Source: Candidatus Nomurabacteria bacterium
GTDB taxonomy: Bacteria > Patescibacteriota > Saccharimonadia > Saccharimonadales > CAIOMD01
Assembly (NCBI GenBank): GCA_020631975.1
Contig: JACKGO010000008.1
Location: 8,446-72,445 of the forward strand
Direction: 5' to 3'
Length of the DNA: 64,000 bases
The position numbers and the translations under genes were made by a program. Below are positions 1 through 49,919 of the stretch, one piece after another. Under the pieces are notes generated by a model, which was not told the DNA's origin, did no database searches, and was given only the letters and a program-made list of their open reading frames with translations. Numbering within the stretch: the stretch's first letter is position 1; every line of letters begins with the position of its first letter.

Positions 1-29
1 ACGTGTCTTGCGCTACGCGAGTGGTCAAA

Positions 30-296: not shown

Positions 297-370
297 GTAG
301 TGTTCCTCTTTCGTCTAGATTAAATAGTTAGTATTGATGGCGTTAGTTGTATTCTAACAGATATACTATT

Positions 371-1081: not shown

Positions 1082-1111
1082 GTCTGCCGTGGGAGTATGT
1101 ACATTAAAATG

Positions 1112-3094: not shown

Positions 3095-3241
3095 TGTTTT
3101 TGGTTTTTAATTAGAGTTTACAATGCCAGCGTATCACGCCGATTATGCTTATGCAAGCAAATTATTGCAAATTTACCAATTTTACAGTATACTTTGCTGT
3201 TGAAGTTTATAACGATAAAGCAATAGTAAAGAAGGAGCTTC

Positions 3242-3667: not shown

Positions 3668-3686
3668 TATTCTGTTGTATGCTTTT

Positions 3687-7673: not shown

Positions 7674-8108
7674 CTACACACCTGTGCTGCCATAGCCCCC
7701 TTGGCCACGACCGGTAGTATCAAGATTATCTACAGTTTTCCAGTGTATACGTTCGGTTTGCGCCAGCACAATTTGGGCAATTCTATCACCATTTTTAATA
7801 GTAAACGAATCTTTAGAGTAATTAATCAGTATCACCCCTAGTTCACCACGGTAATCTGAATCAATTGTCCCTATACCATTTACGAGACCTATGCCATGCT
7901 TGGCAGCTAACCCGCTTCTGGCGCGCACCTGAATTTCGTACCCACGTGGAATTGCCATAGCAAAACCACACGGAATAGTAGCACGGTCTAAATGCCCCAA
8001 AACTACTGGCTCATCAATGGCTGCACACACATCCATACCTGCACTATCGTCTGTCTGGTATTGTGGTAAAACCGCATCTGCACGGAGCTTTTTGAATAAT
8101 ACGTTCAT
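7674..8108 (-). CDS. dut: dUTP diphosphatase
   Basis: 144-aa ORF with dUTPase motifs AGMDV, RSGLA, GTIDSDYRGE and GGYGSTG. Confidence 0.9.
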   Translation of the reverse strand: MNVLFKKLRADAVLPQYQTDDSAGMDVCAAIDEPVVLGHLDRATIPCGFAMAIPRGYEIQVRARSGLAAKHGIGLVNGIGTIDSDYRGELGVILINYSKDSFTIKNGDRIAQIVLAQTERIHWKTVDNLDTTGRGQGGYGSTGV

Positions 8109-8251
8109 CGGTTACTATTGTGCCACACTTGCGCGAAATTGTAATGCGCAATAAAGATAAATTAATTATTTTGTAAGCGTCATTTCATATATATTAATAA
8201 TACGCTTAGCGCAAATGAATGCTACAAACTACGCTATAAAATTAAACGATT

Positions 8252-14784: not shown

Positions 14785-15675
14785 CTACTGCGTTTGCCGT
14801 TTTAGCTCTTGCAAGTTACGGCCTATGATGCCAACTGCTGTTAAAGGATTTTGGGCTTCTGCAGGTGGCTCATCGTTTTCTGCAACCGGGAATGTATCGC
14901 TTACTACAAAAACCTTATTTTTATCTTCATCCATCGCTCTTCTTATCTGACCTGCATTTTGTATCCAATTACCTGCATTACAGGCAACAAGCACAGATTC
15001 TGCACCTTTTGTGATCTTTGCCACTTCGGCAGAAATTTCATTACCGCTGGTAGTCTCTGGAGTAGACAAATCCACTGTTACGTTTGTTGATGATTCTATC
15101 AAAGGCTTAATGACGCGCTCCATGTAGCTCGCTTCTGTGTCGCCTTCAAGAACATCGCTACCTTCAGCTGTGCGCATTTCACGCATTCCGGCAACTAGAT
15201 TAACTTCTAAAATCTCAGTACCATTTTGTAGTGTTTCTATAAGTACTTTTGCCCTACGCATCATCCAATTACGAACACCCCCAGTAATAACTGCGGTTTC
15301 AAATAAGTGAGGTACTAATCGGTCTGGATTTTCATAATTGCGAAAAGATGGTTCTAAAAGACCCGACTGTTTCACCCATTCAATCGCAAATCTTTTGCCA
15401 TCCACACCTGGTAGTATTTCTTCCATGGCAGGAATATTGTCTTGCAGTGTTTTTGCTGGACCTACAATCGAAATAAGCTCACCAAGCGATGCAACATCCC
15501 ATCCATTTTCGGGCTTTTCTACACCAAATACTTTAGCAAGCTCATCAACTATTGGACCATCGATACCTGCAATCTGCTCGATACGGTGTCTGTTAATATC
15601 AAATGAGTTAAATGGTATTAATTTAGTCGGATCTGTTTCGTGAAATGGTGCCTGCTCATGGTTATTTTGTGTCAT
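14785..15675 (-). CDS. hypothetical protein (296 aa; possible distant paralog of 17784..18674)
   Basis: SD AAGAAAGGAAT lies upstream and the gene has its own promoter-leader module at 15676..15763. It has the same length as 17784..18674 and shares a loose GGV...R / LVxGxR pattern with it. Confidence 0.55.
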   Translation of the reverse strand: MTQNNHEQAPFHETDPTKLIPFNSFDINRHRIEQIAGIDGPIVDELAKVFGVEKPENGWDVASLGELISIVGPAKTLQDNIPAMEEILPGVDGKRFAIEWVKQSGLLEPSFRNYENPDRLVPHLFETAVITGGVRNWMMRRAKVLIETLQNGTEILEVNLVAGMREMRTAEGSDVLEGDTEASYMERVIKPLIESSTNVTVDLSTPETTSGNEISAEVAKITKGAESVLVACNAGNWIQNAGQIRRAMDEDKNKVFVVSDTFPVAENDEPPAEAQNPLTAVGIIGRNLQELKRQTQ

Positions 15676-15740
15676 CGTTATATTCCTTTCTTAACTTATG
15701 ATTTAGTTTTTTATTTTGTTACAGTTAATTATTAATATAT

Positions 15741-15763
15741 CACACTTATGCTTATTTGTCAAT
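15741..15763 (-). promoter_or_regulatory. sigma-70-type promoter of 14785..15675
   Basis: Minus strand: TTGACA - 17 nt (AATAAGCATAAGTGTGA) - TATATT. It lies inside the 3' end of the upstream ORF and is followed by the AATTAAC...AAAAAAC leader seen at other orphan genes. Confidence 0.5.
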
Positions 15764-16450
15764 TTCATTGATTAATCCACTTGCGTAGTCAATTGCCCAC
15801 TGTGCAGCATCACGCACATTTGGGTCCTGCATATTATACCTATAGCCCCTAGGAACTCCATTGATACGGTGGGGTAATAGCCACGTACTGCTACCTTCTG
15901 GGTATACCATCAGTCTTTTAGGACTACTATACTTACCCAGCACAGCTACTATACCTAAACTTTTTAGCACAATATCACTATGCCCATGCCCTAGCTCGGG
16001 CATGCTCGACATCGTTTCTTGCATAGCTGTCATAATACTACCTCTTGCTAAGCGCCTGTGTTGCTCTACAACACTATTTCGTCGTGCGTACGTTAAGGCA
16101 CTGGCACCTTGCGTGGGGTCATCCGATGGTTCGTGCTCTTCTAGCGCAGACAAAAATGTAGATACTGCTGGGTCATTCTGATTATGTCTTAGCTCATCAT
16201 TTGTCATTAAAAAGAAAGATCTCGGCTGTATACGTAACCCATGGGTCAGCATCGCAAAATATTGATCATGAACTGTAACTTCATATGGTTCTATAGCTGT
16301 TTCTTGCACATAAGGCCTATCGGGGCTTACCCGCGTAGCAAGCTCATAGACAGCTTCGTATAGTTCGTTGCCAAGTCTATCTGAACCTATGCCAATATCG
16401 TGGCCATTAAATATGATCCCGTTAGGGTCTCTTTCTCTTCTTTTAGCCAT
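15752..16450 (-). CDS. hypothetical protein
   Basis: 232-aa ORF. Its start overlaps the stop of the 83-aa ORF by 8 nt, suggesting translational coupling. Confidence 0.5.
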   Translation of the reverse strand: MAKRRERDPNGIIFNGHDIGIGSDRLGNELYEAVYELATRVSPDRPYVQETAIEPYEVTVHDQYFAMLTHGLRIQPRSFFLMTNDELRHNQNDPAVSTFLSALEEHEPSDDPTQGASALTYARRNSVVEQHRRLARGSIMTAMQETMSSMPELGHGHSDIVLKSLGIVAVLGKYSSPKRLMVYPEGSSTWLLPHRINGVPRGYRYNMQDPNVRDAAQWAIDYASGLINEIDK

Positions 16451-16963: not shown

Positions 16964-16992
16964 TTCACATTTTAGGTTTTTTGTGCTATACT
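16964..16992 (+). promoter_or_regulatory. promoter of the TrmB-like regulator (leaderless configuration)
   Basis: TTCACA - 17 nt - TGcTATACT (extended -10). The ATG at 16999 starts 6 nt after the -10 hexamer. Confidence 0.5.
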
Positions 16993-16998
16993 ACTTGC

Positions 16999-17787
16999 AT
17001 GATAAATTTAAGCGCTGCAGGTCTTAACCCAACAGAGGCACACGTATACCAAGTATTGCTCTCTAAAAAAGAGTGGAAGCCAGCCGACCTTGCCAAAAAC
17101 GTCGGCGAATCACGCACAAATATGTACAAAATACTAGATAAATTAACAGCTCTAGAGCTAGCTATTAAGTTTGATAAAAGCAATAAAATCCATTACAGAG
17201 CCACCAACCCCACGCGCTTGGTACAGCTTGCGCAAGAACATCGCGCGCAGTTAGAGCAATCACAAAAAGAACTAGAAACCAGCACCCAATCACTACTTAA
17301 TGAGTTTATTAAAACGCACGAACAGCCCGGTGTACGTTTCTTTATGGGTAAAGATGATATAGAACGTGTTTACCAAGACCAAGTAAACGATCAAAAACCT
17401 ATCTATTTTATGCTTTCACCTAAAGCGATTGATTTTTATGGATATGCGCAGATGCATAAACTCCGTATGCTTGCGGTTAAAGCCAAAATACCTCGCTTTG
17501 CAATAACTCCAGAAAATACACGTGTGCCTAGTAATTATGAAGAAACAGATAAAGCATACTTATTAACTAGAACGTGGTTAGAAGCAAATGACTACACCGC
17601 TTCGTTTGAATGGGGGGTGTATGGGGATAAAGTCTACTTTGTTACATTTGGAGAAGACGCATTGGCAATGATAATAGAAAGTAAAGCTATGGCAGAAGGA
17701 TTTAAACAAATTTTTAGCATTATTGATTCTAGACAGCGCAGCAAACCAAGTTATGCACGCCTACCAAAAACCTATAAATATGCTTAA
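16999..17787 (+). CDS. TrmB-family-like HTH transcriptional regulator (paralog 1)
   Basis: The N-terminal winged-HTH pattern LNPTEAHVYQVLLSKKEWKPADLAKNVGESRTNMYKILDKLTALELAI matches the TrmB HTH family. The C-terminal YGDKVYFVTFGEDALAMIIES is shared with 34926..35714. The ATG at 16999 is preferred over the TTG at 16981 used in the ORF track. Confidence 0.6.
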   Translation: MINLSAAGLNPTEAHVYQVLLSKKEWKPADLAKNVGESRTNMYKILDKLTALELAIKFDKSNKIHYRATNPTRLVQLAQEHRAQLEQSQKELETSTQSLLNEFIKTHEQPGVRFFMGKDDIERVYQDQVNDQKPIYFMLSPKAIDFYGYAQMHKLRMLAVKAKIPRFAITPENTRVPSNYEETDKAYLLTRTWLEANDYTASFEWGVYGDKVYFVTFGEDALAMIIESKAMAEGFKQIFSIIDSRQRSKPSYARLPKTYKYA

Positions 17788-29061: not shown

Positions 29062-29139
29062 TATTTTATTTCCTTTTTGATATGTTTTTGTTTGTAATTG
29101 TATGATTATACATTAGCACAGTTTTGCTTATTTGTCAAT
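29062..29139 (-). promoter_or_regulatory. promoter-leader module of 27541..29061
   Basis: Minus strand: TTGACA - AATAAGCAAAACTGTGC - TAATGT. This is followed by the leader ...CAATTACAAACAAAAACAT... and SD AAAGGAAA. Confidence 0.55.
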
Positions 29140-29179: not shown

Positions 29180-29395
29180 GAGCGCCGTACCCAAAAACTT
29201 AAATGGCTTACTGCTTGAAAGGCCATCCACTATTCTTTGACATTAGTTGTCAATTGGAGCCGAATGAGAGGCTTACATCAAATGAGGGGTTCCTAGTAGA
29301 CAGCCTGTTATCAAGCAACCAAGCCAAGTTTTTAACGAGCTTACTCTATAAATAAGCCCTGCCGTGAGCCAAATAGTCTTTAGCTCACGTATAGG
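29180..29395. repeat. Repeat A, copy 1 (~215 bp)
   Basis: Near-identical to 32516..32719 apart from about 9 substitutions and a 13-14-nt indel. It contains the palindrome TTGACA-N5-TGTCAA at 29237..29253. Confidence 0.85.
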
Positions 29396-29488: not shown

Positions 29489-30364
29489 TTAGCGCTTTAC
29501 ATCATTAAGTATTAGCTCGCCCATACCAAAATCTAGCGTTGCGGAATGATGAGGAGTCGGCTCAGCCTCATTTGCATGAAAATGTGCGTAATGTTCTGAT
29601 ACGTATCGTCTTGTGCGGTCACCATTGGCAATCAATTGATATAGTCTGTCGCCTTCTGGCAAGCTGCGAACAAGCTCTTCTCCGTGTGAGTGTGTACGCA
29701 TTGCTTTATGAATAGCGCCTAGGCCTTCCATTGGGTCCGGTAAGCGTTCAGTGGTCCATAATAAATCTCCATAATATGGATCCTCCCAAGCCATCGCTAT
29801 GCCCCCTAGAGAAATATAAAGTTTATATTCATCAGATATTTGTGTTTCTTTCCAATCTTCAAACGCTCCAGGCTCAAGTAGGTCACCCCTTAAAGCCGAA
29901 CCGATGCCATTTACTTCTTGTTCAACAATAGTATGCCCAGGTGCTTGGTTTACAATATGGTAATTGTCACCTCGCCCAGCGGCACCCCAAGGTACAAGTA
30001 GCGTAGGTTGCGTACCGTGGTATTCGGAAATATCCATAGGCAGATCGCGTGTATGTGGGTAGCGGGATAGCCAATTGTGTAACAAAGCATCCAAGATAAA
30101 TGATTGATTAATTGCCACACTATATTCACGCGAGAAACTAATTCGCCTATGAAGAGGCAACAAGCTCTCTCCGGCGAGTAACACGTCTAAATCTCTAGGG
30201 GGCACACCATCTGCTTGGCGAACAGACGATCCATGAACTAATAATGTATAGTCTTCAAGATCCCGTTGTATTGATGCTTTTTCTGATGCAACACCATTAC
30301 CGCGCCCTTGTGTATGTATACTATTTTGTATTGATTCTAATGTACTATTTCTTAATATTTTCAT
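29489..30364 (-). CDS. Pol-beta-superfamily nucleotidyltransferase domain protein
   Basis: 291-aa ORF. HGSSVRQADGVPPRDLDVLL fits the G[SG]-x(9-13)-DhD NTase signature, and a further acidic strand LPMDISEY lies downstream. The C-terminal ~150 aa are unassigned. Confidence 0.55.
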   Translation of the reverse strand: MKILRNSTLESIQNSIHTQGRGNGVASEKASIQRDLEDYTLLVHGSSVRQADGVPPRDLDVLLAGESLLPLHRRISFSREYSVAINQSFILDALLHNWLSRYPHTRDLPMDISEYHGTQPTLLVPWGAAGRGDNYHIVNQAPGHTIVEQEVNGIGSALRGDLLEPGAFEDWKETQISDEYKLYISLGGIAMAWEDPYYGDLLWTTERLPDPMEGLGAIHKAMRTHSHGEELVRSLPEGDRLYQLIANGDRTRRYVSEHYAHFHANEAEPTPHHSATLDFGMGELILNDVKR

Positions 30365-30370
30365 TAAATT

Positions 30371-30418
30371 CCTTTCGCCGTTTTCGGCTCGTCAGTGCGG
30401 ATACACATCCGCAGAGGG
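30371..30418 (-). ncRNA. type III hammerhead ribozyme motif, copy 1 (HHR-1)
   Basis: Minus strand: CCCUC/UGCGGAU-GUGU-AUCCGCA-CUGACGA-GCCG-AAAA-CGGC-GAAA-GG. The core is complete (CUGANGA, GAA, A15.1:U16.1, C17). Stems I and II are closed and stem III is open. The predicted cut is between 30414 and 30413. Confidence 0.6.
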
Positions 30419-30505
30419 TTGGGGTGGGCGCTTACGAGGGCGCCACACCCCTTTGTGATTGCCCAAAGTGGGCTTTGATGCGCTTATCACAAAAGCGCTG
30501 GCGGT

Positions 30506-30883
30506 TTACCACTGATACGATCTGGGGTAAACTTTGCTTTCGGGTGCAGGGCACACCCACACATCGGATCGGTAGGGCTCCATGAGCACTACCGCTTGTC
30601 CGTTGGTGCACGACGCTCCGCCCTCTAGCACTGCCGGGGGCTGTTCGCCACTGTAGCAGTAGGACGGGCTACCTGGCACGGGCAGCCCTCCGGCACAACG
30701 TTCTCTGGCCTGCTCTTCGATGAGGGCCGAGTTCAGCGGGATAAAAATAGCCCCACTGATGATAGCTGTGATGGCTAGTACCGTCATAGCCACCTTATCC
30801 CTCGCTACTAACGCCATGATTGCCATGGCCAGCAGCACGGCGGTCAATGTAAGTACTGCATATGCAGCATCGTACAGGGACAT
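30506..30883 (-). CDS. small membrane protein with a Cys-rich C-terminal domain
   Basis: 125-aa ORF with a strong SD (GGGAGGAGGGGG) before the ATG. It has two predicted TM helices, then a domain with five Cys. It is visibly more G+C-rich than its neighbours. Confidence 0.55.
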   Translation of the reverse strand: MSLYDAAYAVLTLTAVLLAMAIMALVARDKVAMTVLAITAIISGAIFIPLNSALIEEQARERCAGGLPVPGSPSYCYSGEQPPAVLEGGASCTNGQAVVLMEPYRSDVWVCPAPESKVYPRSYQW

Positions 30884-31016
30884 TGTAGCCCCCTCCTCCC
30901 AAACAAATCTGTGCTCACATTTTGCAAGCAGGCTTCAGACTGGTTGGGTTGCCAACTGCTAAATTGTCTTAACAATCAACAATCCAACCAGTCTTTAAAA
31001 TAATTAATACTTGTTA

Positions 31017-31940
31017 TTAATGTTTCAGCCCACTATCAAATAATGCTGGTGTAGCTATAACTGATCTGTTATTATACAAATCCTCCAGATCAATTAAGTA
31101 GGTGTTGTCTTCAGGATGATTGACAGACCATAACATTCCTGCAACTTGTCCTGGTTCAGCTACAAATTTGATCATCATTTCACCATTGTTCAAAAAATAT
31201 AAAGTCTCTGTTACCTCTAGCCCATTAGTCCCAATGTATCTCGTAACATTGCGCCACTTTTCATGTGGTTCTTTTATAAACACTCCATAAGAAACTAGTG
31301 TAGACAGTAGCTCTTGAGTTTTTACCGGCTCGCCCGCCGCCCAACCAGGATATCCATTATTCCCAACCCATACAACTTCACCTTTTTCTGTTTTTTTACC
31401 CATTATGCCAATTTCAAAACCTTCATTAACCGCATTTTGCTTATCACCTACTCTTCGTTCATAGAGTTCCATGGTTTCTTCCATTGATACAATTGGTTCA
31501 ATGATTGGATATTCTTCTGTCTGGTAACGCTTTAAGCCTCGTTTAGTAAGCTCTTCATCGGGCAAATTATGCATAATAGCAACTTCTGAAATACCATGAT
31601 TTCGTTCATTGATTTTTTGCATTAAACTTGGTGTAACTTCATGCAATCCACCATCAATATCACGTATAATTCCATCGCATAAGATTGTTGCGAAACCACA
31701 TAAATTACAACCTCCAACATAAGGATCAAATGTTTTACTATAATCTACATGATCACCACCCAACTCAGTATGTGGTGGATCGAGTAGTAGTCTTACTGCA
31801 TATATACCCGGATGCGTCTTATACAAATCAGCAGGTAAATTATGATGCTGAAAATCGTCTGTTAAAATTCCCTCGCCTAAGATTGGTAAATCAGGAGAAC
31901 TGGAACGTATAGAATCTTCAATTGCTTCTTGTTTATTCAT
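31017..31940 (-). CDS. hypothetical protein
   Basis: 307-aa ORF directly downstream of HHR-2. No family recognised. Confidence 0.5.
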   Translation of the reverse strand: MNKQEAIEDSIRSSSPDLPILGEGILTDDFQHHNLPADLYKTHPGIYAVRLLLDPPHTELGGDHVDYSKTFDPYVGGCNLCGFATILCDGIIRDIDGGLHEVTPSLMQKINERNHGISEVAIMHNLPDEELTKRGLKRYQTEEYPIIEPIVSMEETMELYERRVGDKQNAVNEGFEIGIMGKKTEKGEVVWVGNNGYPGWAAGEPVKTQELLSTLVSYGVFIKEPHEKWRNVTRYIGTNGLEVTETLYFLNNGEMMIKFVAEPGQVAGMLWSVNHPEDNTYLIDLEDLYNNRSVIATPALFDSGLKH

Positions 31941-31980
31941 TACTTATGATATCCTTTCAGGCTACTAGCCTAATATATTT

Positions 31981-32028
31981 CCTTTCGCCGTTTTCGGCTC
32001 ATCAGTGCAGACACACATCTGCAGAGGG
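31981..32028 (-). ncRNA. type III hammerhead ribozyme motif, copy 2 (HHR-2)
   Basis: Minus strand: CCCUC/UGCAGAU-GUGU-GUCUGCA-CUGAUGA-GCCG-AAAA-CGGC-GAAA-GG. The architecture is the same as HHR-1, with a compensatory G:C to A:U change in stem I. The predicted cut is between 32024 and 32023. Confidence 0.6.
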
Positions 32029-32515
32029 TTGGGGTGGGCTTATTGAGTTACGTCCTACCCCGCTCTATGCCTGCCCATGAGTTGGGCTTGAACGCGCATG
32101 CATAGAAAGCGCGTTTACTATATGACCCTAAGCGAGGGGGTTCCGTTTTATTTACAAGGAAACGGTTTCCTGAACCTCGCCGTCCTAGCACGGCTTCGGT
32201 GTACTCGTTGAGTACACGATCTCCTGCCGCTTAAACGGCAGCGGCTTACGCACAACGTCAGTTGGCTTCGCCAATGGACTCACCTCCTTCCGAGGTGTTG
32301 TCCGAATAAGCGCCAACTCGCTTCTTCGGAAGTATTTTAGCCGCCAGTTGGGGCGGAAGCAGTTTTAGTAACCCAGTGATGCCCATACTGGGGATTCGTC
32401 TAGAGCAGGTGCTCTTCGACGATCCGGACAATCTCGTCGGTGTCGACCACTGACGAGATGCCTGCGGCGATCCGCCGATAGTGGGGCTGCCGCCCCACCC
32501 TGGATCAACCTCGCC
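32029..32515 (-). ncRNA. G+C-rich chain of short perfect hairpins (candidate structured RNA; strand uncertain)
   Basis: No convincing ORF. At least 12 local hairpins of 4-8 bp were read directly, for example GUGGGGC/GCCCCAC, AUCUCGUC/GACGAGAU, CCCAGU/ACUGGG, CUGCCG/CGGCAG and GUGUACU/AGUACAC. The 3' ~90 nt are homologous to the three-hairpin module upstream of HHR-1. Confidence 0.35.
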
Positions 32516-32719
32516 GAGCGCCGTACCCAAAAACTTAAATAACTTACTGCTTGAAAGGACATCCACTATTCTTTGACACAAGTTGTCAATTGGAGCCGAA
32601 TGAGAGGCTTGCATCTTAGTAGACAGCCTCTTATCAAGCAACCAAGCCAAGTTTTTAACAAGCTTACTCTATAAATAAGCCCTGCCGTGAGCCAAATAGT
32701 CTTTAGCTCACGTATAGGA
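32516..32719. repeat. Repeat A, copy 2 (~204 bp)
   Basis: See copy 1. The palindrome TTGACA-N5-TGTCAA is at 32573..32589. The copy starts 13 nt after the stop of 32732..33436. Confidence 0.85.
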
Positions 32720-32731
32720 ATTATCTATCTT

Positions 32732-33436
32732 TTAAACTGTTATATCTATAAGATTTTGTGCTTCTATTTTTTGTGCCAAACTCGTGTGTAAAGTTTCAAA
32801 ACCAGCATGTGCTTCTTGGGTATGCACTCGAAAATCGGACAGCTTAGGATCTGCATCATCTTGATATTCTAAGCAATTAGAGTATCCAGCCTCATTCCAA
32901 GTTACTAATTTTCCTATTACAGAAGGAACCCCTTGACTATCTGAAAATAAACCAAATGCATAGTTGTATGGTAAATAATCACCGGTACCAATTGGACGTA
33001 CATCGTTGCTACTGGTGACATGTCTACTATGCGACATTCTTAGCGTTGCTGCACGCGGATTATTATTCCATGTAGAGCCGGGTGTATTTAGGTAGGAATC
33101 GGTAATTAAATCGTAATCTCTATTGTAGAACCCACGACTACCATCACCCCACTGATCACCATATTCCGAACCAAAACTACTTAAAGTTGTCATTTCCCAA
33201 CTCATATCAACACTTACCGGCGTTCTAAATAGTAGTGCTGACAAGCCTGCCCGGACACGTCGGTGTAAGCCAGGTTCATCTGGGTTATCAATGGCGTTTA
33301 AGTCAACTACAGGCATACTGAACCTATCTTCTAGTGTACCCGTATCTGCACGAACTACCTTGTACAGTGCTGTATTGTCTGCGTCAATTAAAAATTCTTG
33401 TATCTCATTTTTCATTATATTACTCCTTATCGACAT
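32732..33436 (-). CDS. hypothetical protein
   Basis: 234-aa ORF lying 20 nt downstream of the preceding ORF. No family recognised. Confidence 0.5.
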   Translation of the reverse strand: MSIRSNIMKNEIQEFLIDADNTALYKVVRADTGTLEDRFSMPVVDLNAIDNPDEPGLHRRVRAGLSALLFRTPVSVDMSWEMTTLSSFGSEYGDQWGDGSRGFYNRDYDLITDSYLNTPGSTWNNNPRAATLRMSHSRHVTSSNDVRPIGTGDYLPYNYAFGLFSDSQGVPSVIGKLVTWNEAGYSNCLEYQDDADPKLSDFRVHTQEAHAGFETLHTSLAQKIEAQNLIDITV

Positions 33437-33456
33437 ATGTTGTCATAGCTTTATTG

Positions 33457-34317
33457 CTATGAATTGTCATTTGTTATACTGTTTAAAAAATCTCTTTCCC
33501 ATGCAGGTATGTCTTCGTCAGGAGAAGATTGTTGTTGTTCTTCTTCTGATATAGTTTGTAAATACTTACCATAGCGCTGCAGGTTGTCTGATTCTAAAAG
33601 CAATGCATCCCACGCCTCTTTAAGTGAAACACCATCTATACTCCTAATGACTTTAAGCTTAGAGCCATCTGGATTATTGTACATAGTTGCCCACTGCTGC
33701 GGTGTGCCTAGCAATAAGTCATTGGTATTAAAGCCATTATTAAGCGCATTCCAAATGCCTTTTGTAGCAACGTTTCCTATCCACTGTGCCGGTATTAGTT
33801 CTTTTGGTACACCAAAGGTTTCAACACCGTCAATATCAAATGATTCTGGTACAACTTTTACTCGGGCAGATTGACCAGCACCTAGCTGATATCTTGCTGT
33901 ATTGCCAGCGGCTTCTATGGCTGCTGTCCAAGCTGCTCCGTCTCCAGCGTACTTTCTACCCTTACCCAAGGTGCTAAAAATAGGTAATCTGAGTGTTGAT
34001 GTTGCAGATTTTTGACTTTCCCAGCCAGTCAGCTGTTTGCTACCTCCAATACCAATGCGATCGGTGAGTGTAGTAGCGACAACCATTGCGTTATTGCTAT
34101 CTTCTGCAGTAATATCACCAGAATACGCTGCAATAGCGCCCAAGACTTGTTCTGTACGCCATGCATGTCTTTCTCTTGATAAACCACCAGCTATTCTTTC
34201 GGCAGCATCCCCAACAATTTCTAAAGATGCTAGCTGTTCTAGTGTCTCTTTTCTTGTATATCCCCAAAAAGGTGATTTTGGGCATGCGTCTGGTAAAATG
34301 ATATCTTGTTCAATCAT
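33457..34317 (-). CDS. hypothetical protein
   Basis: 286-aa ORF with SD GCAGGAGAAG upstream of the ATG. It is the first cistron of the operon. Confidence 0.5.
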   Translation of the reverse strand: MIEQDIILPDACPKSPFWGYTRKETLEQLASLEIVGDAAERIAGGLSRERHAWRTEQVLGAIAAYSGDITAEDSNNAMVVATTLTDRIGIGGSKQLTGWESQKSATSTLRLPIFSTLGKGRKYAGDGAAWTAAIEAAGNTARYQLGAGQSARVKVVPESFDIDGVETFGVPKELIPAQWIGNVATKGIWNALNNGFNTNDLLLGTPQQWATMYNNPDGSKLKVIRSIDGVSLKEAWDALLLESDNLQRYGKYLQTISEEEQQQSSPDEDIPAWERDFLNSITNDNS

Positions 34318-34800
34318 TTACTTCTCCTGCATTTAATTATGATATGGGCATGTATTACCCGCTTGATGCCGCACTTAAGAATACCCTTTATATAATGATA
34401 GGGTTCTTATTGCCCACCCTGCTATTTGTATGACTTTAAAGGGGGTTGGGCGGCACCAGGCGGGCTCGTTGAACTGCGAGATAGGTGTAACCTACCATAT
34501 CAACGAGTACGCGCCAGAGGCACTTGAGCTATATGAGCACTCTTATATGAATAGATGGTAAAGCATATAGAATTAACAAGTATATTCGCGTACGTTTCTC
34601 GGGCGTACCACAGAACGGGCATGAGTTTCGCATCAAAAGCGAATCATTCCTACAGGACCATGTAAATACACATGTTAGCTCCACAACCGCGAGCATTTAA
34701 GCCGCGTACCCACATAATGCGGGAGGGCTCATTTGCCTTGGTAGCTTGCATCTAGTTTATAAGGTGCGATCGATGGATAAGCCTCTCATTCATTCGATCT
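34318..34800 (-). other. ~480-nt untranslated leader, partly G+C-rich (candidate cis-regulatory or structured RNA)
   Basis: Lies between the promoter at 34801..34836 and the ATG at 34317. It has no ORF and contains several local hairpins. Confidence 0.3.
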
Positions 34801-34836
34801 TGCATACAGTATGTCACGTTTTTGCTTTTTTGTCAA
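34801..34836 (-). promoter_or_regulatory. promoter of the 286aa...NTase operon
   Basis: Minus strand: TTGACA - AAAAAGCAAAAACGTGA - CATACT. It has the same -35 and spacer family as the other orphan-gene promoters. Confidence 0.45.
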
Positions 34837-34876
34837 TACTTAGCATGTTATTGATAATATTTACAGTGGTAGCATT

Positions 34877-34918
34877 TGTCATTTTTAAATTGACATTTAT
34901 AACTATATATGCTAGAAT
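34877..34918 (+). promoter_or_regulatory. promoter of TrmB-like paralog 2 with an overlapping inverted repeat
   Basis: TTGACA (34890-34895) - 17 nt - TGcTAGAAT, with the ATG 7 nt after the -10. The inverted repeat TGTCA-N9-TGACA (34877-34895) overlaps the -35. Confidence 0.5.
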
Positions 34919-35769: not shown

Positions 35770-36246
35770 ATGACAATTATTCCAGAAGCGTCAAAACCTA
35801 ACGTAGAACTACCTGAAACCCAACGATCTGAAATTTTATATACAGCTATGTTCTTAACTGCCGAGGCTCAGCAAGAGCTACTCGCTAAGTACCCACCAAA
35901 GTATGATACAGTCCATGCAACGCATTCTACCAATGCTTTCAGGGATGCAATACCCCACGGCCCAATTATTGCTGGCATTGAATATACGTTAAAAGTTATT
36001 GGGGTTGTAGACAATGGCCAAGTTCAGGTTGTACTTGTAGAAAATCCTTTCTCACAAAAAGCTGCTCCACATATAACGATATCTTGTGCAATAGATCCTG
36101 ACACGAATAAGCCATATCCACCAAGTATTGCCAATACGGTAATCGAACAAGCAATAGAAGATGGTAGTGTAATCCCAATTACCGGTGTAGAGCTTAATAG
36201 CGTTTCTGGCTACTTTACTAAGTCACATACAGTGGTCACGCATTAG
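35770..36246 (+). CDS. stand-alone 2H (HxT/HxT) phosphoesterase-like protein
   Basis: 158-aa ORF with two H-x-T motifs (VHATHST and PHITISC) at the spacing expected for the 2H fold. It aligns along its length with the C-terminal domain of the 832-aa protein. Confidence 0.55.
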   Translation: MTIIPEASKPNVELPETQRSEILYTAMFLTAEAQQELLAKYPPKYDTVHATHSTNAFRDAIPHGPIIAGIEYTLKVIGVVDNGQVQVVLVENPFSQKAAPHITISCAIDPDTNKPYPPSIANTVIEQAIEDGSVIPITGVELNSVSGYFTKSHTVVTH

Positions 36247-36272: not shown

Positions 36273-38603
36273 CTATGTATTTATAACCTTTAGGGATGTT
36301 TTGCCGACACGTTTGTTCCTCAAAATAGTTAAGTGGTGCGCAGCCATTTCTATAAATTCTCCAAATAAATGCGGGTCACTGCATATCGGAGAAAACGTCT
36401 CACGCACATGGTAATCTTTATGCATAATACCTTCGCCATGCCTTTGGCGACTATGCTGCACGCCAACAGTAATCAATGCGGCCAAAAGGGTATTGGGGTC
36501 GTTTTCTGGGTTTGTAGCATCTTCACTAAATGTACCGAGATCTAATGCTACATGCCCAGATATCTTTTCTAGATCTAATCTCATAGATACTTTTACATTG
36601 CGGGGCTTGCCAGCTTTCGTTACACTAAGGTGTTTACCAAATATTGCCTGCTGGTCAGCTGGCGTTAAAGCCAAACTCCACCGTAATCGCGCCTCTGCTT
36701 CGTCTGTTTCGTGTGGGCGTAAAGTCATACCTACCGAATCATTTATTCTAGAAAATGATCTTAAGCCACTATCTCTATCAGATACTGGTAAGTGATCATC
36801 TACTAGTGCTGACTCTGCCATCGCATAATTACGAGTCTGATGCTCGATGAGCTTAAGACCCTGGATTACTTGTTCAATTGAATTAATTGTTAGCCTAGCA
36901 GATTCAGTGCCATCACGATGATAAAATACTGCATCTTGAGATTTACCAGCTAGGATATCTGCGGCAGGGCTTAATATTTGCGAAACTCTCATTTCTATAC
37001 CACGCTTAATACCAATAAAATATTCTTTATACACACAGTCATCTTGTGCAAACCATGCTCTTTTTTCCCAATTTAACATATTAGCACGTATGTCATTAAT
37101 GAGGCTGAATATCTCTTGTGAGGCTTCCCCTTTTCTATCTACTTCCGCTAAATCAATTATTGCCTCACCAAGATGATCACCATATTCTAACGCTAAAAAA
37201 GCCTCAAGTACTTTAATTCTTTCGTTTTCATTAGTTTTGTTTAAAGCCTTGCTTAGACGTGCAAAATTACCCAGACTTGTCTGTTCCGAAAAATATTGTG
37301 CAAAAATTAGTTGCGACCTCATCGATAATTTGTTTAATTTTATGCCAATTCTAGATTCTAGGGCTATTCGCACTTGTGGTAAGAAGTACACTTCGCAAAA
37401 TCGTTTAAATTCATCTTCGTTATGTAAGTTTGGGACAAACATATCTTCGCCGAACTCTCCCAGTGCAATAAAAGGCGACGTAATTCCTTGGTATTGAAAT
37501 GCATATACTCTGCCCCCTGGACCAATAATTGCGCTAATGCCGTCGCTAGACACAGGTATAATGTCAACAATGTCACGCTTGCTTTCATCGTCAACATTAT
37601 CCTGGTCTCTGAAGCTACCATTCGCACTGGCAGAATAATAGTTATACCTAGTGTCGCCATGTTGAATTTTGCCTAACATCTCGCGACTAGAAGACATAGC
37701 TTCGTCTGTAACTATATCAACTAGGGGATTACCTGTACGTTCAGCACTGCCTTTGGTGTGGCTATATATTCTTTCCCATATAGCGTCGCAGGTGCCGCCA
37801 TATCCCCAATGCGGAGCACCCTCAATAAATAGAGCAACTTCTTTTAGGGTTACTATATTTCCAACGAGACTAACGATGTCTGTATCGCTTAGTAATTCGT
37901 CCAACAAACTACTATTTAATCGAGATGCTAACGCATATATCATACCTTGGAGTGTAGTTCTATCACCTAATTTCAAAGCAACCGGAGAGCTTAATATAAA
38001 ATTTAAATTACTCCATTGTTCGCGCCCTGAATCATTTGAGGCTTGGAATATCAGACCTTCGAGTACACTACCATATATTGAACTAAGCGCTTCGTCTGCG
38101 CTTTTAATTGAATCAATATTGCGTAAAAATTGGCCATTATTTTTATCAAAGTATAGATTATTTAGTGCTTCAATATAGTCTCTCAGCAGTACGCTAGAAG
38201 TTTCAGGATCTCTATATTGCTGAAAGTTGGGATTATTCTTAATTGAGTATTCGAGGCTTTGATTTAGTTGTCCTTTAGGTAAACTATTTATGTGTACTAA
38301 AATATCATTAGTTTCATGTGAATTTAACGATTTAACTCGCCGCATCATCCACGAACGAGACCCCTTTTCTCCGTCAATGTTTTGACCATATTGATTTTGC
38401 CAATAGTCAAGAAATGTATCATTTTCTTCTTTGTTTACTAAACAATCAAATAGGTCGTTGAGTTCAATTTGTCTCTCTAGTAAATCCTGTATTGACGTAG
38501 CAAGAGGGTCATTTAATCCCTCAAGATAACTATGTACTTCTTGCGTAAAACGACTATGCTTGAAGTCACTTTTAGATTCAGGGTTTATTACTGTTGTCGG
38601 CAT
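36273..38603 (-). CDS. large orphan protein A (776 aa)
   Basis: Its C-terminal third is clearly homologous to the central part of 40602..43100. Examples: AFLALEYGDHLGEAI vs AFLATEYGESLGDSI; RPHETDEAEARLRW vs RPTETPQAEARIRW; LLAALITVGVQH vs LLAALITAGVQH; DYHVRETF vs DYHVRDTF. Confidence 0.6.
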   Translation of the reverse strand: MPTTVINPESKSDFKHSRFTQEVHSYLEGLNDPLATSIQDLLERQIELNDLFDCLVNKEENDTFLDYWQNQYGQNIDGEKGSRSWMMRRVKSLNSHETNDILVHINSLPKGQLNQSLEYSIKNNPNFQQYRDPETSSVLLRDYIEALNNLYFDKNNGQFLRNIDSIKSADEALSSIYGSVLEGLIFQASNDSGREQWSNLNFILSSPVALKLGDRTTLQGMIYALASRLNSSLLDELLSDTDIVSLVGNIVTLKEVALFIEGAPHWGYGGTCDAIWERIYSHTKGSAERTGNPLVDIVTDEAMSSSREMLGKIQHGDTRYNYYSASANGSFRDQDNVDDESKRDIVDIIPVSSDGISAIIGPGGRVYAFQYQGITSPFIALGEFGEDMFVPNLHNEDEFKRFCEVYFLPQVRIALESRIGIKLNKLSMRSQLIFAQYFSEQTSLGNFARLSKALNKTNENERIKVLEAFLALEYGDHLGEAIIDLAEVDRKGEASQEIFSLINDIRANMLNWEKRAWFAQDDCVYKEYFIGIKRGIEMRVSQILSPAADILAGKSQDAVFYHRDGTESARLTINSIEQVIQGLKLIEHQTRNYAMAESALVDDHLPVSDRDSGLRSFSRINDSVGMTLRPHETDEAEARLRWSLALTPADQQAIFGKHLSVTKAGKPRNVKVSMRLDLEKISGHVALDLGTFSEDATNPENDPNTLLAALITVGVQHSRQRHGEGIMHKDYHVRETFSPICSDPHLFGEFIEMAAHHLTILRNKRVGKTSLKVINT

Positions 38604-40294: not shown

Positions 40295-40468
40295 CTACAA
40301 ACTGTTCAAGAAATCTTGGGCGCGGTACGAAATAATACGTTTGCGGTCTTCGTTTAGACGTTTGTAGGTTTTTACCGTTGAGGCAGTACGAGAGTTTTGG
40401 CTCAGTACATCTTGATTATTTGCAACAAAACGCCACAAAAGGCCATCCCACGTATCGCACCAGTCGAA
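40295..40468 (-). pseudogene. 3' fragment of a second cryptochrome/photolyase-related gene
   Basis: DWCDTWDGLLWRFVANNQDVLSQNSRTASTVKTYKRLNEDRKRIISYRAQDFLNSL aligns with the last ~57 aa of 43182..44684. Everything upstream is missing. Confidence 0.6.
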
Positions 40469-40618
40469 ATCGATGTTTATGGGAACCGCGTAGCTTTCAT
40501 CGCTTTCGGTGAAACCCAAATGGCTACTATAATTGATAGCACGCCAATTGCCGAAGCAGTGAGACAAATACTCACTGTTCTTCGTGATCATTACAAGCCA
40601 ACTATTTCGGCTGGGTAA
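40457..40618 (+). pseudogene. 3' fragment of a third TrmB-like regulator
   Basis: APVEIDVYGNRVAFIAFGETQMATIIDSTPIAEAVRQIL aligns with the C-terminus of 34926..35714. The HTH and start are missing. Confidence 0.6.
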
Positions 40619-43100
40619 TTACCTTACCAGCTTTCGCATCGAAATATCCAATTGTGCCCACCAGCTCTATGGGCTTATCAAACCAAACTATTGAACCATT
40701 TATTTCAGCCTGTTTGATTGCATATTTGCTGTACATGGGAGGAATTTTTTTGCCATTCGCATCGTTTCCTGTAGCTATGGTAATATGTGGTTGCGTTACA
40801 TCTGAGCCAAAACCTGCTTGGTCAATAATGAGCACTTGAGCTTTACCGTCGTTTATATAGCCCACTACTCTTACCTTTTGCTGTTTTCCAATATCTAGAC
40901 CTTTTAGCCCCCCATCTTTTGGTCTGAACTTTAAGGTAATGTGGGGATTGTCGGGAATATGTTCATACGGTTCACTAAAAATTACTCCAGCTACAGACCT
41001 AAGTACTGCATCATCGAAAAAGACTCCAGTATACACAACGTTAGGCAATGATTCTTTGGTAGTTTCTGCCGTTAAGCCAGTTGCTTCTACAGACATACGT
41101 CCAAGTTCTATTTTAGCTTTGTCAACATAACGTTCTTGCATAGCTCTGACAAAGCCTGCAAATGTATCTGGATTGCTTAAAGATAAATCAAATGTGTCCC
41201 TAACGTGATAGTCTAAATGGGCAATATCTTTGCCCTGCCGCAGGGCATCATGCTGCACACCAGCAGTAATAAGTGCTGCAAGTAATACATCGGGATATTC
41301 CCTTGAGCCACTGCCGTACTGCATGCTAGACCCGAGATCAAGGGATAACCTACCCGAAATTTTTTCAAAATCTAGTCGTAAAGAAGCCTTGGCGTTTCTG
41401 GGTTGACCGTTCGAATTAACATCTAAATACCTCCCAAATATTTCCATCTGCTCTTGTGGCGTGATATTAACAGCCCAACGTATCCGCGCTTCGGCTTGCG
41501 GAGTTTCAGTTGGTCGCATCATTATGCGTGCAGTAGAACCATCAGAACTTGCACTAGACGACATGTAATCTTCTTCGACAAATGACTTGCGATCAGAAAT
41601 AGGTTCTGCTTCAGCGGCAGATAATTTTTGTATCAGCAAGTTCAATATCTTTAGCCCTTGCACCACTTGCTCTACCGAATCGATGTCAAAACGTTCAGCC
41701 GGAGTGTCATCACGGTGAAAATATTGCGCCAGTTGCGTTATACCGTCCATCAGATCCGGAGTAGGGCTCAATATCTGTGATATACGTGACTCTATAGCTT
41801 GCTTGATACCTGCAAAATATTCATTATACTCACAATCTGGCTGGGCAAACCAAGCATTCGATTCCCATACTCGCGCGTTTTCTCTAATCGACGATATTAG
41901 ACGAAAAATCTCATTACCACGCTCTGAACTCTCACTCCTCTCGGCTATCTGCAGGATTGAATCACCAAGACTCTCGCCGTACTCAGTAGCCAAAAATGCT
42001 TCTGCAAAGATCAGACGATCTTCACTGGATAATGTCTGCAAGACAGTCTCGACCCGCTTGAATCTTTGATTGTCCGACTCTATCATAAAGTCAAATAATC
42101 GCTGTTGCGTCGTAAGAGTAATTCGCAGCACATCAAGCCCAAGCCTATCACCAATCGCACCTAATGTATATCGATCATACAGTAATGGGTATTCGGTTTC
42201 GTCGTAAGCGCTAACCTCTTCTAATATTTCCTCTTCATGAATCTCGCTCTGATCTGTGGGCAATCCTGGCTTTATGCGCACAAACCTTTCGACATTGCCA
42301 CCCGCAGAGTAAGCAGCAATCGCATCCGGGGCGATTCGAACATACTGTTTGTACGAATCAAAGCCGTCAGGTAGTAAGACGTCACAGAAACGATCCTCGT
42401 AGCCAGATTGCCGTTTTAATAAATCAGCGCTTTTTTGGGTAAGATCACTATGACCCGTATCGTTACTTCGCATCTCAAATTCAAGTTCACAATTATCGGA
42501 TTCGATTTGTGCTGTCATTGCAAGTAAAGGAATATCAATTCGCTGGTACCTCTCTAATATCTGCTTCATTTGGGGCCAGAATTCTTGCTGATAAACCCCG
42601 ATCACCCCTACCGAACGGATTCGCAACAAATGTACGCCTAACGGCGCATCGGCGGACAACTCAGGGACAACTCGCTTGCCAGCCAAGATTGGCAATAAGA
42701 CATCGTTTGCTACATCGGATGTACGCATAGCTGCATGACCCATTAAATCTATCAGCTCCCATGGTGCGTATGGTGGTAGCGGTAGTAGACAAGCCTGCAA
42801 AAGAGCGTCTGCGTTTAGTCGTGTTGCAGCTCTTCTGTCAGAATCTTTTTCAACATCGCCCAATGCATCAATCTGATCATGCATCAGACGGAAAGCAGAT
42901 TGCACACGTCTATCTTGTGGTAAACTGTTGAGATATTCCGATACATGAGCGCACACGGTATAAAAATAATCATCTATTAGTCGCTGATCCCCTGCGTAAA
43001 ATGCCTGTTTCAATACCTCAATTGAATCATCAGTAACGCAAACAAGTTCTTTCGCGATTTCATTAGCCTTTTTCCTTGGAGATTCAACTATGTCAGTCAT
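40602..43100 (-). CDS. large orphan protein B (832 aa) with a C-terminal 2H phosphoesterase domain
   Basis: The central region is homologous to protein A. The last ~150 aa carry PHITLKF and PHITIATG and align with the stand-alone 35770..36246 protein. Confidence 0.6.
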   Translation of the reverse strand: MTDIVESPRKKANEIAKELVCVTDDSIEVLKQAFYAGDQRLIDDYFYTVCAHVSEYLNSLPQDRRVQSAFRLMHDQIDALGDVEKDSDRRAATRLNADALLQACLLPLPPYAPWELIDLMGHAAMRTSDVANDVLLPILAGKRVVPELSADAPLGVHLLRIRSVGVIGVYQQEFWPQMKQILERYQRIDIPLLAMTAQIESDNCELEFEMRSNDTGHSDLTQKSADLLKRQSGYEDRFCDVLLPDGFDSYKQYVRIAPDAIAAYSAGGNVERFVRIKPGLPTDQSEIHEEEILEEVSAYDETEYPLLYDRYTLGAIGDRLGLDVLRITLTTQQRLFDFMIESDNQRFKRVETVLQTLSSEDRLIFAEAFLATEYGESLGDSILQIAERSESSERGNEIFRLISSIRENARVWESNAWFAQPDCEYNEYFAGIKQAIESRISQILSPTPDLMDGITQLAQYFHRDDTPAERFDIDSVEQVVQGLKILNLLIQKLSAAEAEPISDRKSFVEEDYMSSSASSDGSTARIMMRPTETPQAEARIRWAVNITPQEQMEIFGRYLDVNSNGQPRNAKASLRLDFEKISGRLSLDLGSSMQYGSGSREYPDVLLAALITAGVQHDALRQGKDIAHLDYHVRDTFDLSLSNPDTFAGFVRAMQERYVDKAKIELGRMSVEATGLTAETTKESLPNVVYTGVFFDDAVLRSVAGVIFSEPYEHIPDNPHITLKFRPKDGGLKGLDIGKQQKVRVVGYINDGKAQVLIIDQAGFGSDVTQPHITIATGNDANGKKIPPMYSKYAIKQAEINGSIVWFDKPIELVGTIGYFDAKAGKVITQPK

Positions 43101-49831: not shown

Positions 49832-49919
49832 TGGCGGAGGGAGAGGGATTCGAACCCTCGAGGGCTTGCGCCCAACACGCTTTCCAAGCGTGCGCCATAG
49901 GCCACTAGGCGACCCCTCC
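49832..49919 (-). tRNA. tRNA-Ser (anticodon GGA)
   Basis: Minus strand: GGAGGGG-UC-GCC...GGC-G-CACGC-UUGGAAA-GCGUG-long variable arm-GAGGG-UUCGAAU-CCCUC-UCCCUCC-G-CCA. It forms a full cloverleaf with an encoded CCA. Confidence 0.85.

Follow-up and report, generated by a model that had tools for sequence, protein, structure and literature searches.

What do two hammerhead ribozymes do between the genes of one bacterial operon? The question is raised by a stretch of 64,000 nucleotides (nt) from Candidatus Nomurabacteria bacterium (contig JACKGO010000008.1), in the following called the window, in which two hammerhead ribozymes, HHR-2 and HHR-1, lie between open reading frames (ORFs) that are all read from the minus strand. 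An earlier note on this DNA described the locus as a ribozyme-punctuated operon of orphan genes and hypothesized that a defined internal RNA of 1.6 kb is cut out of its transcript. That observation was confirmed as a whole, and the features were found where they had been placed. The interpretation fared less uniformly: the ribozymes, the orphans and the co-occurrence in other genomes stood, whereas the 1.6-kb RNA as a special product did not, and the enzyme labels were found to rest on motifs. The reading which we favour, and consider moderately probable, is that the hammerheads separate and insulate cistrons, as parts of a portable spacer module in a variable operon beside a TrmB-like regulator. 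The elements on which this reading turns are given here in 5' to 3' order, with lengths in amino acids (aa).

About 32024-32520, minus strand: GC-rich structured block upstream of HHR-2 (53-59% guanine plus cytosine, GC; z = -6.3)
32031-32115, minus strand: the three module hairpins of HHR-2, the final ~90 nt of the GC-rich block
31981..32027, minus strand: HHR-2, type III hammerhead, predicted cut C32024/U32023
31017..31940, minus strand: p307, orphan ORF of 307 aa with its own Shine-Dalgarno (SD) sequence (AAAGGAU), start 41 nt past HHR-2
30937..30994, minus strand: conserved hairpin right behind the p307 stop, an inverted repeat ~96% identical to L037 and the 5' border of the block shared with it
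30506..30883, minus strand: p125, 125 aa, with hydrophobic N-terminal segments and a Cys-rich tail, within a GC-rich structured block
30421..30498, minus strand: three hairpins that would form the 3' end of the middle RNA piece (-39.5 kcal/mol, z = -4.4)
30371..30417, minus strand: HHR-1, type III hammerhead, predicted cut C30414/U30413
29489..30364, minus strand: p291, 291 aa, of a very small family

Judged by their sequences both elements are genuine type III hammerheads, and self-cleavage of both is plausible. The core is canonical in the two copies (CUGA(U/C)GA ... GAAA, an A15.1-U16.1 pair and C17) and the topology is that of type III, with capped stems I and II and an open stem III. U16.1 and C17, as read from the sequence, are 32025/32024 in HHR-2 and 30415/30414 in HHR-1, and the middle piece between the predicted cuts, 32023-30414, is exactly 1,610 nt long, as had been calculated before. 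The pair of same-strand hammerheads proposed in the earlier note are real members of a covarying family, with exact positions and cut sites. The Rfam model Hammerhead_3, run on a 6.5-kb region, gives 32.1 bits for HHR-1 (30367-30421, E = 6e-4) and 31.2 bits for HHR-2 (31983-32025, E = 1e-3), and the lineage model R1 gives 69.1 and 73.6 bits, respectively. The 25-nt core pattern occurs twice in the window where 0.00 occurrences are expected, and a generic type III descriptor following the Perreault criteria has 31 hits in the window and related loci and none in reversed controls. The two copies share a 61-nt repeat with 93% identity, and their stem I differs by a compensatory change from G-C to A-U (GCGGA/UCCGC versus GCAGA/UCUGC). 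For HHR-1 in its context the fold of minimum free energy is the hammerhead.

The family was collected by a scan in which each species was represented by one genome; the core pattern used, CTGANGAGCCGAAAACGGCGAAA, itself fixes stem II. The scan gave 26 loci, about half of them named Saccharibacteria or other Patescibacteria and many of the others unclassified, all of which fit a type III hammerhead; the lineage amounts to at least 31 copies, mostly in metagenome-assembled genomes (MAGs) of Patescibacteria/Saccharibacteria. When 29 copies are aligned with MAFFT, standard pairs make up 90.6%, compared to 33-44% with the 3' partners slid, and nine of the ten pairs of stems I and III show double-sided changes. 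Stem II is near-fixed in the lineage (GCCG-AAAA-CGGC); it is compensated (GUCG/CGAC) in a copy in L045 which was found independently. The labels L001-L045 are used for related and conspecific contigs fetched for comparison. Contigs L001-L010 and L042 come from the same organism (99.5-100% identity) and are useful for variant counts only; in 10 conspecific contigs there is not a single variant in either ribozyme, and the flanking ORFs vary. A scan of metagenomes with a lineage-specific pattern returned the same strain only, and the lineage pattern has only two hits in viral contigs. In L043, a viral contig of 58 kb, an intact and a degenerate lineage hammerhead (7695-7755 and 8167-8219) lie 470 nt apart, each just before a ribosome-binding site (RBS) and start codon, and flank a small repeat-rich ORF. 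Permissive Rfam searches of the window, L037, L039-L041 and L045 found no other class of ribozyme.

Each hammerhead is the 3' part of a conserved module of ~140 nt, composed of three hairpins and the hammerhead. The module is kept in five copies, from which an RNAalifold consensus recovers the three hairpins together with the hammerhead. The ribozyme of L037/L038 and one of the L045 copies have the same three hairpins ahead of them, and those of HHR-2 are homologous at 75% to L045 1774-1635. The three hairpins expected at the end of the middle piece were recovered as stable structures (30421-30498, see above). The module occupies the interval from one stop codon to the start codon that follows. 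HHR-1 ends 7 nt ahead of the p291 start codon, and the 3' strand of its stem III (GG) is part of the sole SD-like sequence of p291 (AAAGGA), a layout which is the same in L037. At the 31 sites of the family the upstream ORF of the same strand usually ends at most 150 nt away, and a downstream ORF with an SD sequence usually starts within 130 nt.

The ~490 nt before each ribozyme have a GC content of 53-62% and fold far better than shuffled sequences (z = -6.3 for HHR-2, -6.1 for HHR-1); a GC-rich block of this kind precedes the ribozyme in some loci only. The earlier description of the block before HHR-2 as a chain of hairpins is right as to GC content and structure and has to be amended at the beginning, where 32518-32462 is probably the remnant of a gene. 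This remnant of 19 codons, LGEVDPGWGGSPTIGGSPQ, begins exactly at the end of a structured element called Repeat A, and its motif GWGGSPTIGGSPQ (32462-32518, minus strand) matches the C-terminus of a 298-aa ORF which precedes a hammerhead in L013 (tblastn E = 0.002). A weaker match to the same region of this 298-aa protein is found in ORF 58330-58860 on the plus strand of the window (E = 0.075). Two candidates were rejected: the GC-rich blocks are not copies of one large structured RNA, a repeat search having found only the 61-nt repeat and the hairpin module, and a 130-aa ORF in the GC-rich block is not a gene, its N-terminal part being Repeat A and its frame being closed in copy 2.

Comparison with the relatives requires the remaining features of the locus.

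34808..34836, minus strand: promoter-like site P1, TTGACA-17-CATACT with a TG extension before the -10
34318..34805, minus strand: structured leader of ~490 nt (fold z = -4.3)
33457..34317, minus strand: p286, orphan ORF of 286 aa
32732..33436, minus strand: p234, 234 aa, with a homolog in L045
32515..32728, minus strand: Repeat A copy 1, a structured element of ~215 nt
32462..32518, minus strand: the probable gene 3'-end remnant described above, with its tblastn match to the L013 ORF
29179..29405, minus strand: Repeat A copy 2, 94% identical to copy 1 (z = -6.2)
29110..29138, minus strand: promoter-like site P2 before p506, TTGACA-17-TAATGT, a near-duplicate of P1
34926..35714, plus strand: TrmB-like winged-helix regulator, divergent from the operon (Pfam TrmB, E = 1.3e-10)
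35770..36246, plus strand: p158, putative 2H phosphoesterase-like protein with two conserved H-x-T-x motifs
36273..38603, minus strand: p776, a large protein, syntenic with the TrmB-like gene in L013, L033 and L045

The order on the minus strand of leader, ORFs, Repeat A, GC-rich block, HHR-2, p307, p125, HHR-1 and p291 had been given correctly, and the consensus promoter proposed at 34801-34836 was found as P1; its position and spacing are kept in L045 (TTGACA-17-CATAAT). Two further corrections are needed. The layout with one promoter has a near-identical second site, P2 (29138-29110), directly after Repeat A copy 2, and Repeat A, which had been entered as a single element and is present at 32515-32728, is duplicated: its two copies, 94% identical, bracket a segment of 3.3 kb with the remnant, HHR-2, p307, p125, HHR-1 and p291. 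P2 and P1 are alike in 20 of 23 nt, which suggests that p506, a 506-aa ORF missing at the homologous position in L037/L038, is co-regulated with the operon. Palindromes of the TGTCA/TGACA type at 34850-34880, in the intergenic region between the TrmB-like gene and the operon, are candidate TrmB-like operators, as are palindromes (TTGACA-N5-TGTCAA) within Repeat A at 32560-32580 and 29225-29245. The equivalent intergenic place in L045 has a palindrome with 14-nt arms.

L037/L038 represent another species: YjbR and DnaG have 68-70% DNA identity to those of the window, and DnaG is 57% identical as a protein. The order in L037/L038 is p291 ortholog, p125 ortholog, hammerhead, p291 paralog (30% identity), Repeat A-like element, YjbR and DnaG. 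Window 30998-30352 is 87% identical in DNA to L037 750-1400, and the p291 gene is 88-92% identical to its L037 ortholog; the neighbours of the shared block in L037 differ from those in the window. The breakpoints of the block are found right behind the stop codon upstream and, on the other side, ~13 nt inside the downstream ORF. An identity of 87-92% for the block of p125, hammerhead and p291, compared to 68-70% for the flanking YjbR and DnaG genes, together with the different neighbours, indicates cassette exchange.

L045 shares with the window the promoter, the start of the leader and a trio of genes (aa identity 76% for TrmB, 59% for p158 and 62% for p776), so that the trio of TrmB-like, 2H-like and 776-aa-family genes recurs there with a hammerhead operon. 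The divergent operon of L045 encodes proteins of 186, 112, 207 and 216 aa. An intact hammerhead lies 14 nt ahead of the third gene. The fourth and last gene (216 aa) is a p234 homolog (30% identity, E = 2e-23), at a different position in the operon from that in the window; behind it, where the contig ends, comes the invariant block of Repeat A. In L013, a distant MAG, three hammerheads on the same strand (1-3900, minus strand) separate four successive genes; each is preceded by a hairpin and two carry long stem II inserts. Upstream of this operon lie a divergent TrmB-like gene and a gene for a 912-aa p776 relative; the fourth gene of the operon encodes a nucleotidyltransferase of the PolyA_pol/CCA type (E = 5.9e-32). 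Common to L037/38, L045 and L013, whose other genes differ, are a TrmB-like regulator, a large protein of the 776-aa family and a divergent operon carrying one to three hammerheads on the same strand. In L039 a hammerhead lies ~400 nt upstream of another p291 relative. Conserved co-occurrence of these genes in other genomes, on which the earlier note had staked its reading, was found: a hammerhead followed by a p291-family gene is seen in L037/38 and L039. In L019 (3406-3982), L021 (3150-3739) and L025 (2325-3513) a lineage hammerhead stands directly before a related gene; the products form one protein cluster, at least one member of which matches Pfam CYTH. The member in L025 has about double the length, and in L022 a protein related to this cluster is encoded upstream of the ribozyme.

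Genes flanking the lineage hammerheads are heterogeneous overall. In an all-against-all clustering of ORFs the most recurrent family is the TrmB-like one, with five of the 26 loci selected by ribozyme, plus the window and L040; L045, which was fetched after the clustering and stands outside it, adds an eighth TrmB-like locus. TrmB-like homologs lie beside hammerhead operons in L013, L019, L021, L033, L034 and L045. Next come the p291 family with four loci and the p776, PolyA_pol and CYTH families with three each. We dropped the five of 26 as a strong enrichment when a third TrmB paralog without a hammerhead turned up in the window: the family is abundant in this genome, and the count is only suggestive, the specific synteny being the stronger evidence. 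This third paralog (16981-17787, plus strand) is 38% identical to the TrmB of L040 (E = 1e-51) and lies beside minus-strand ORFs at 14785-16450, with no hammerhead near.

The mechanism which we infer from this arrangement comprises read-through transcription, cleavage in vivo and an effect on expression. RNA polymerase starting at P1 (34836), or reading in from upstream, would transcribe several cistrons, and each hammerhead would cut itself after C17 (32024/32023 and 30414/30413). The upstream mRNA would end in three stable hairpins closely followed by a 2',3'-cyclic phosphate, and the downstream mRNA would begin with a 5'-OH and the compact body of the ribozyme, 7-41 nt before the start codon. 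In the case of HHR-1, stem III holds bases of the p291 SD sequence, and cleavage followed by strand release would free the ribosome-binding site. The polycistronic RNA would be split into units with defined ends, whose stability and translation would be independent of the neighbours, as with an insulator. Insulation of each unit fits a locus in which genes move between genomes in cassettes whose breakpoints coincide with the module edges. The excised 1.6-kb RNA would on this reading be the automatic outcome of two ribozymes that separate cistrons; L013 with its three ribozymes would give two internal pieces. A likeness to RiboJ-type insulators suggests itself. These reportedly consist of a self-cleaving hammerhead plus a hairpin between the upstream sequence and the RBS (the work is said to be that of Lou et al. 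in Nat Biotechnol, 2012), are said to be engineered from the ribozyme of a plant satellite RNA, and reportedly make downstream expression independent of upstream context. The module described here differs in being natural and in having three hairpins 5' of the cut, which would protect the upstream product; the likeness is one of function as we infer it. If the insulator reading is true the module is a natural counterpart of the ribozyme insulators of synthetic biology. Its predictions can be checked: the exact RNA ends, the RBS released by cleavage and the competing helix at HHR-2 which is described next.

Several observations weigh against this mechanism. Both copies score below the Rfam RF00008 gathering score of 48.5 bits and are seen with permissive settings only; a stem III of 3 bp and a short loop on stem II account for the low scores. 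With its 3 bp (A-U, G-C, G-C) stem III has the minimum length in the family, a length also found in L028 and L030, whose cores are perfect. By nearest-neighbour energies, which leave out tertiary terms, the predicted ensemble occupancy of the full fold is ~5% in HHR-1 and ~0.1% in HHR-2, where the stem III strand ACCCU (32024-32028) can pair with an AGGGU further upstream (32125-32129), enclosing the three hairpins. One of the L045 hammerheads (825-885, minus strand), 29 nt before the fourth gene, has decayed (CCGAUGA core, altered stem II) while keeping stem I and the upstream sequence of the window copies, and L040 has a TrmB-like gene and a p291 homolog with no detectable hammerhead. Since Repeat A is structured, ends the operon in relatives and here lies between P1 and HHR-2, read-through is less certain. 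Finally, the 5'-OH product of the glmS ribozyme of B. subtilis is degraded by RNase J1, and by analogy cleavage could destabilise the downstream mRNA instead of protecting it. As a separate matter, the AGGGU helix, by competing with the active fold of HHR-2, could act as an on/off switch.

Could the cassettes instead be transcribed singly? The ribozyme would then only trim the 5' untranslated region (UTR) of the downstream gene, after the pattern of the hammerhead in the haloviruses HF1/HF2, and there would be neither an operon-length RNA nor a 1.6-kb piece. This would agree with L019, L021 and L025, where a divergent promoter region is followed at once by the hammerhead, within the 5' UTR of the first gene (CYTH); Repeat A may moreover terminate transcripts from P1, and between p307 and p125 there is a weak terminator-like hairpin. 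It is at variance with the minus strand from 34808 to 29489, where no promoter-like site is better than 9/12 and such sites are not enriched (12 found, 14.9 expected). The earlier statement that no intervening promoter is obvious holds in this sense, the ribozymes being placed between same-strand ORFs with no convincing internal promoter. The gaps from stop to module to start are also short and are taken up by the ribozyme module itself. We consider separate transcripts unlikely.

The hammerheads might also be inactive or nearly inactive relics which hitch-hike with the spacers and play no role in the present expression of the operon. The 3-bp stem III, the low predicted occupancy of the active fold and the Rfam scores below threshold would be expected of relics, and there are decayed copies elsewhere, in L045 and as the degenerate copy of the viral contig L043. 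The surrounding orphan ORFs, too, evolve almost neutrally. Among the variants within the species the ratio of non-synonymous to synonymous changes is 11:5 in p291, 7:3 in p286 and 3:0 in p125, compared to 1:3 in the TrmB-like gene and 1:4 in p506. An intact p125 with a strong SD sequence is found in L037 (77% aa identity); it differs by 13 synonymous and 29 non-synonymous codons, and the differences (22/14/22 by codon position) are not biased to the third position, so that constraint on p125 at the protein level appears weak. A patch of ~130 nt in the 3' half of p125 (30550-30680, minus strand) is near-identical to L037 even at synonymous sites, and elsewhere the ORF differs by ~15-20%; this points to constraint at the nucleotide level or to a patch of recent recombination. 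What speaks against relics is that neither window copy nor the hammerheads of L037, L038 and L039 have lost any core position, that the stem I changes between the two window copies are compensatory, and that the ribozymes are free of variants while the neighbouring sequence varies. The members with a 3-bp stem III, L028 and L030, keep perfect cores, and a short stem III gives fast product release, which here would favour irreversible cleavage. A relic status is distinctly unlikely.

The proteins bear on a third alternative, in which the cuts feed a dedicated processing of RNA ends: a 2H-like protein (p158 or the domain in p832) would open the cyclic phosphate and p291 would extend or modify the ends. 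The earlier note had called p291 a nucleotidyltransferase and had seen 2H phosphoesterases nearby, and had recognised no family in the other five operon proteins. The last point stood: these five are orphans in Pfam, PHROGs, NCBIfam and PADLOC. The same four databases gave nothing usable for p286, p234, p307, p125, p291, p506 and p776, and p307 and p286 have no homolog but themselves among 5.8 billion proteins. For p291 three distant relatives, none of them annotated, were found among 1.84 billion representatives. The family has the motifs hGS-x11-DxD, PWG and NGxxSALRG..PGAF..W, and in the signature HGSSVRQADGVPPRDLDV residues G45, S46, D58 and D60 are invariant in five family members. The motif hG[GS]-x9-13-D-x-[DE] is present, and this short motif makes p291 a putative nucleotidyltransferase, compatible with the Pol-beta type. 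The label went beyond what profiles and structure returned: there was no Pfam match, a PDB profile search was empty, and the AlphaFold model is weak, with a predicted local distance difference test (pLDDT) of 49; p291 has no similarity to the PolyA_pol protein of L013.

The 2H label is in a similar position. Two H-x-T/S-x motifs are present in p158 and in p832; those of p158, THST and HITI, are also kept in P0007 and P0008. No match to p158 was found in Pfam, NCBIfam or PDB sequences, its sole PHROGs match is a family of unknown function (E = 0.0015), its model is weak (pLDDT 54.5) and one Foldseek run gave noise. In p832 (40602-43100, minus strand) a p776 paralog (41% over 358 aa) and a p158-like C-terminal domain (PHITL, PHITIA) are joined in one protein. 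A truncated TrmB pseudogene at 40397-40618 on the plus strand (56% over 52 aa) adjoins p832, and the two amount to a second copy, now decayed, of the module of p776, 2H-like and TrmB genes. As p158 and p776 are neighbours here and are fused in p832, the 2H-like domain is linked to the 776-aa family; this link does not show that the 2H-like domain acts on ends made by the ribozymes. What speaks for end processing is that p158-like and 776-aa-family proteins are encoded side by side in the window and in L045 and are fused in p832, that a hammerhead followed by a p291-family gene occurs in three independent loci, and that genes of the PolyA_pol type (L013, L016, L021) and CYTH genes (L019, L021, L025) recur near lineage hammerheads. 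Neither enzyme label was verified by profile or structure searches, the 26 loci found by ribozyme alone contain no p158 homolog, the flanking genes are heterogeneous overall, and p291 with its 11 non-synonymous to 5 synonymous variants is little constrained. We regard dedicated end processing as very unlikely.

A circular p307/p125 mRNA, made from the 32023-30414 RNA by the reverse hammerhead reaction or by a ligase, is most improbable: the ribozymes agree in stem III (CC/GG) and almost agree in stem I, so that the excised ends could rebuild a whole hammerhead, and 5'-OH and 2',3'-cyclic phosphate are, by established chemistry, the ends required for RtcB-type or ribozyme ligation, but scans of the proteins of the locus with Pfam and NCBIfam found no ligase gene, a 3-bp stem III would hold the ends poorly, the interior is ordinary coding sequence whose content varies among relatives, and Perreault et al. 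sought circular or spliced products of clustered bacterial hammerheads and found none (PMC3088659).

How do cistron-separating hammerheads in a portable spacer compare with what is already known? The arrangement of same-strand hammerheads between operon genes is one already described in 2011 (PMC3088659): hammerheads flanking single genes or short blocks are known in bacteria as clusters, polycistronic RNAs of ~2 kb were cleaved in vitro, processing into gene-length mRNAs was proposed, and the flanking genes in other bacteria are heterogeneous. In a review from 2019 the function of bacterial hammerheads was still listed as open (PMC6765202). As in the clusters of Agrobacterium tumefaciens, Azorhizobium caulinodans and Clostridium scindens, hammerheads of the same strand, here HHR-2 and HHR-1, bracket a block of genes, and as in the clusters of Perreault (PMC3088659) processing of a transcript is proposed and circular products have been considered. 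Those clusters are associated with prophages and integrases and include types I and II, whereas the present locus is chromosomal, in a Patescibacteria-like MAG; a PHROGs scan of the locus proteins, including all those of the operon, found no annotated phage function, and among the locus proteins scanned with Pfam there was no integrase or phage match. The coincidence of a three-hairpin module with breakpoints of gene exchange also sets this locus apart from the Perreault clusters; cleavage at this locus is predicted.

The position of HHR-1, 7 nt before the start of p291, resembles that of HHphage in the haloviruses HF1/HF2, which lies 13 nt before a start codon (PMC3088659). HHphage, however, is a structural variant at the head of a transcript of an archaeal virus, whereas HHR-1 has a canonical core, lies between cistrons and overlaps an SD sequence with its stem III. 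In retrozymes and viroid-like RNAs (PMC7229834), as here, two hammerheads of the same polarity in direct repeats flank a segment which can be released with 5'-OH and cyclic phosphate ends. The interior here is different, 1.6 kb of coding sequence with two ORFs, and the repeats are just 61 nt at 93% identity plus diverged hairpins; the locus shows no sign of retrotransposition or RNA replication. With integrons the likeness is limited to the cassette-like turnover of genes, the junctions here being ribozyme modules and Repeat A and not attC, and Pfam, PHROGs, NCBIfam and PADLOC found no recombinase domain in the neighbouring proteins.

In the open-access literature searched, hammerheads are nowhere paired with Patescibacteria or Saccharibacteria, and the pairing with the candidate phyla radiation concerns RNA polymerase domains. 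The locus and its relatives add a new, well-defined hammerhead lineage in Patescibacteria; notable in the present case are the composite module, a context other than phage and the coincidence with cassette breakpoints. Standard annotation overlooks both copies because they fall below the Rfam threshold. In three related genomes the spacers with the ribozymes persist and the surrounding genes are replaced, which ties the ribozymes to modular variable genes and not to one protein.

It remains to account for Repeat A. The element matches no Rfam family. It shares invariant blocks with L037/L038, a long helix is kept in L038, and the operons of L037/L038 and L045 have it as their distal element. 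The invariant block UAAGCCUCUCAUUC is exactly complementary to GAAUGAGAGGCUUA, the leader's 5' end (34791-34778, minus strand), which is conserved in L045. This 14-mer has three sites in the window compared to 0.02 expected, 34791-34778 in the leader versus 32611-32598 and 29275-29262, and both partners of the complementarity are present in L045. The complementarity may reflect a long-range pairing of the 5' and 3' parts of the RNA, or inverted repeats in the DNA. The simplest reading of the duplication is that an ancestral operon ended with a gene of the p234 family and Repeat A, and that the cassette array was added by recombination at Repeat A, which would have duplicated it. One may go further and suppose that the hairpin-hammerhead module and Repeat A are the junctions of an undescribed gene-cassette system of Patescibacteria, in which orphan genes would pass between genomes at these junctions, the 3.3-kb segment between the two Repeat A copies would be a Campbell-type insertion of a circular array, the ribozymes would insulate newly arrived cassettes at the level of RNA, the TrmB-like, 776-aa, 2H-like and p291 partners would form one unit for regulating and processing the RNAs that result, and the pairing of leader and Repeat A would tie the ends of the transcript together. 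We put this forward as a doubtful proposal.

The window as a whole is a segment of bacterial chromosome with 42.5% GC and genes for PolA, DnaG, ArgRS and GroEL; RpoD was called through the precomputed Pfam annotation of the corresponding L001 gene. It is 99.9% identical to contig JAGQMV010000013.1 of the MAG GCA_020428475.1. A tRNA-Ser with a GGA anticodon and a long variable arm, at 49835-49919 on the minus strand, is the sole Rfam match above the gathering threshold in the window.

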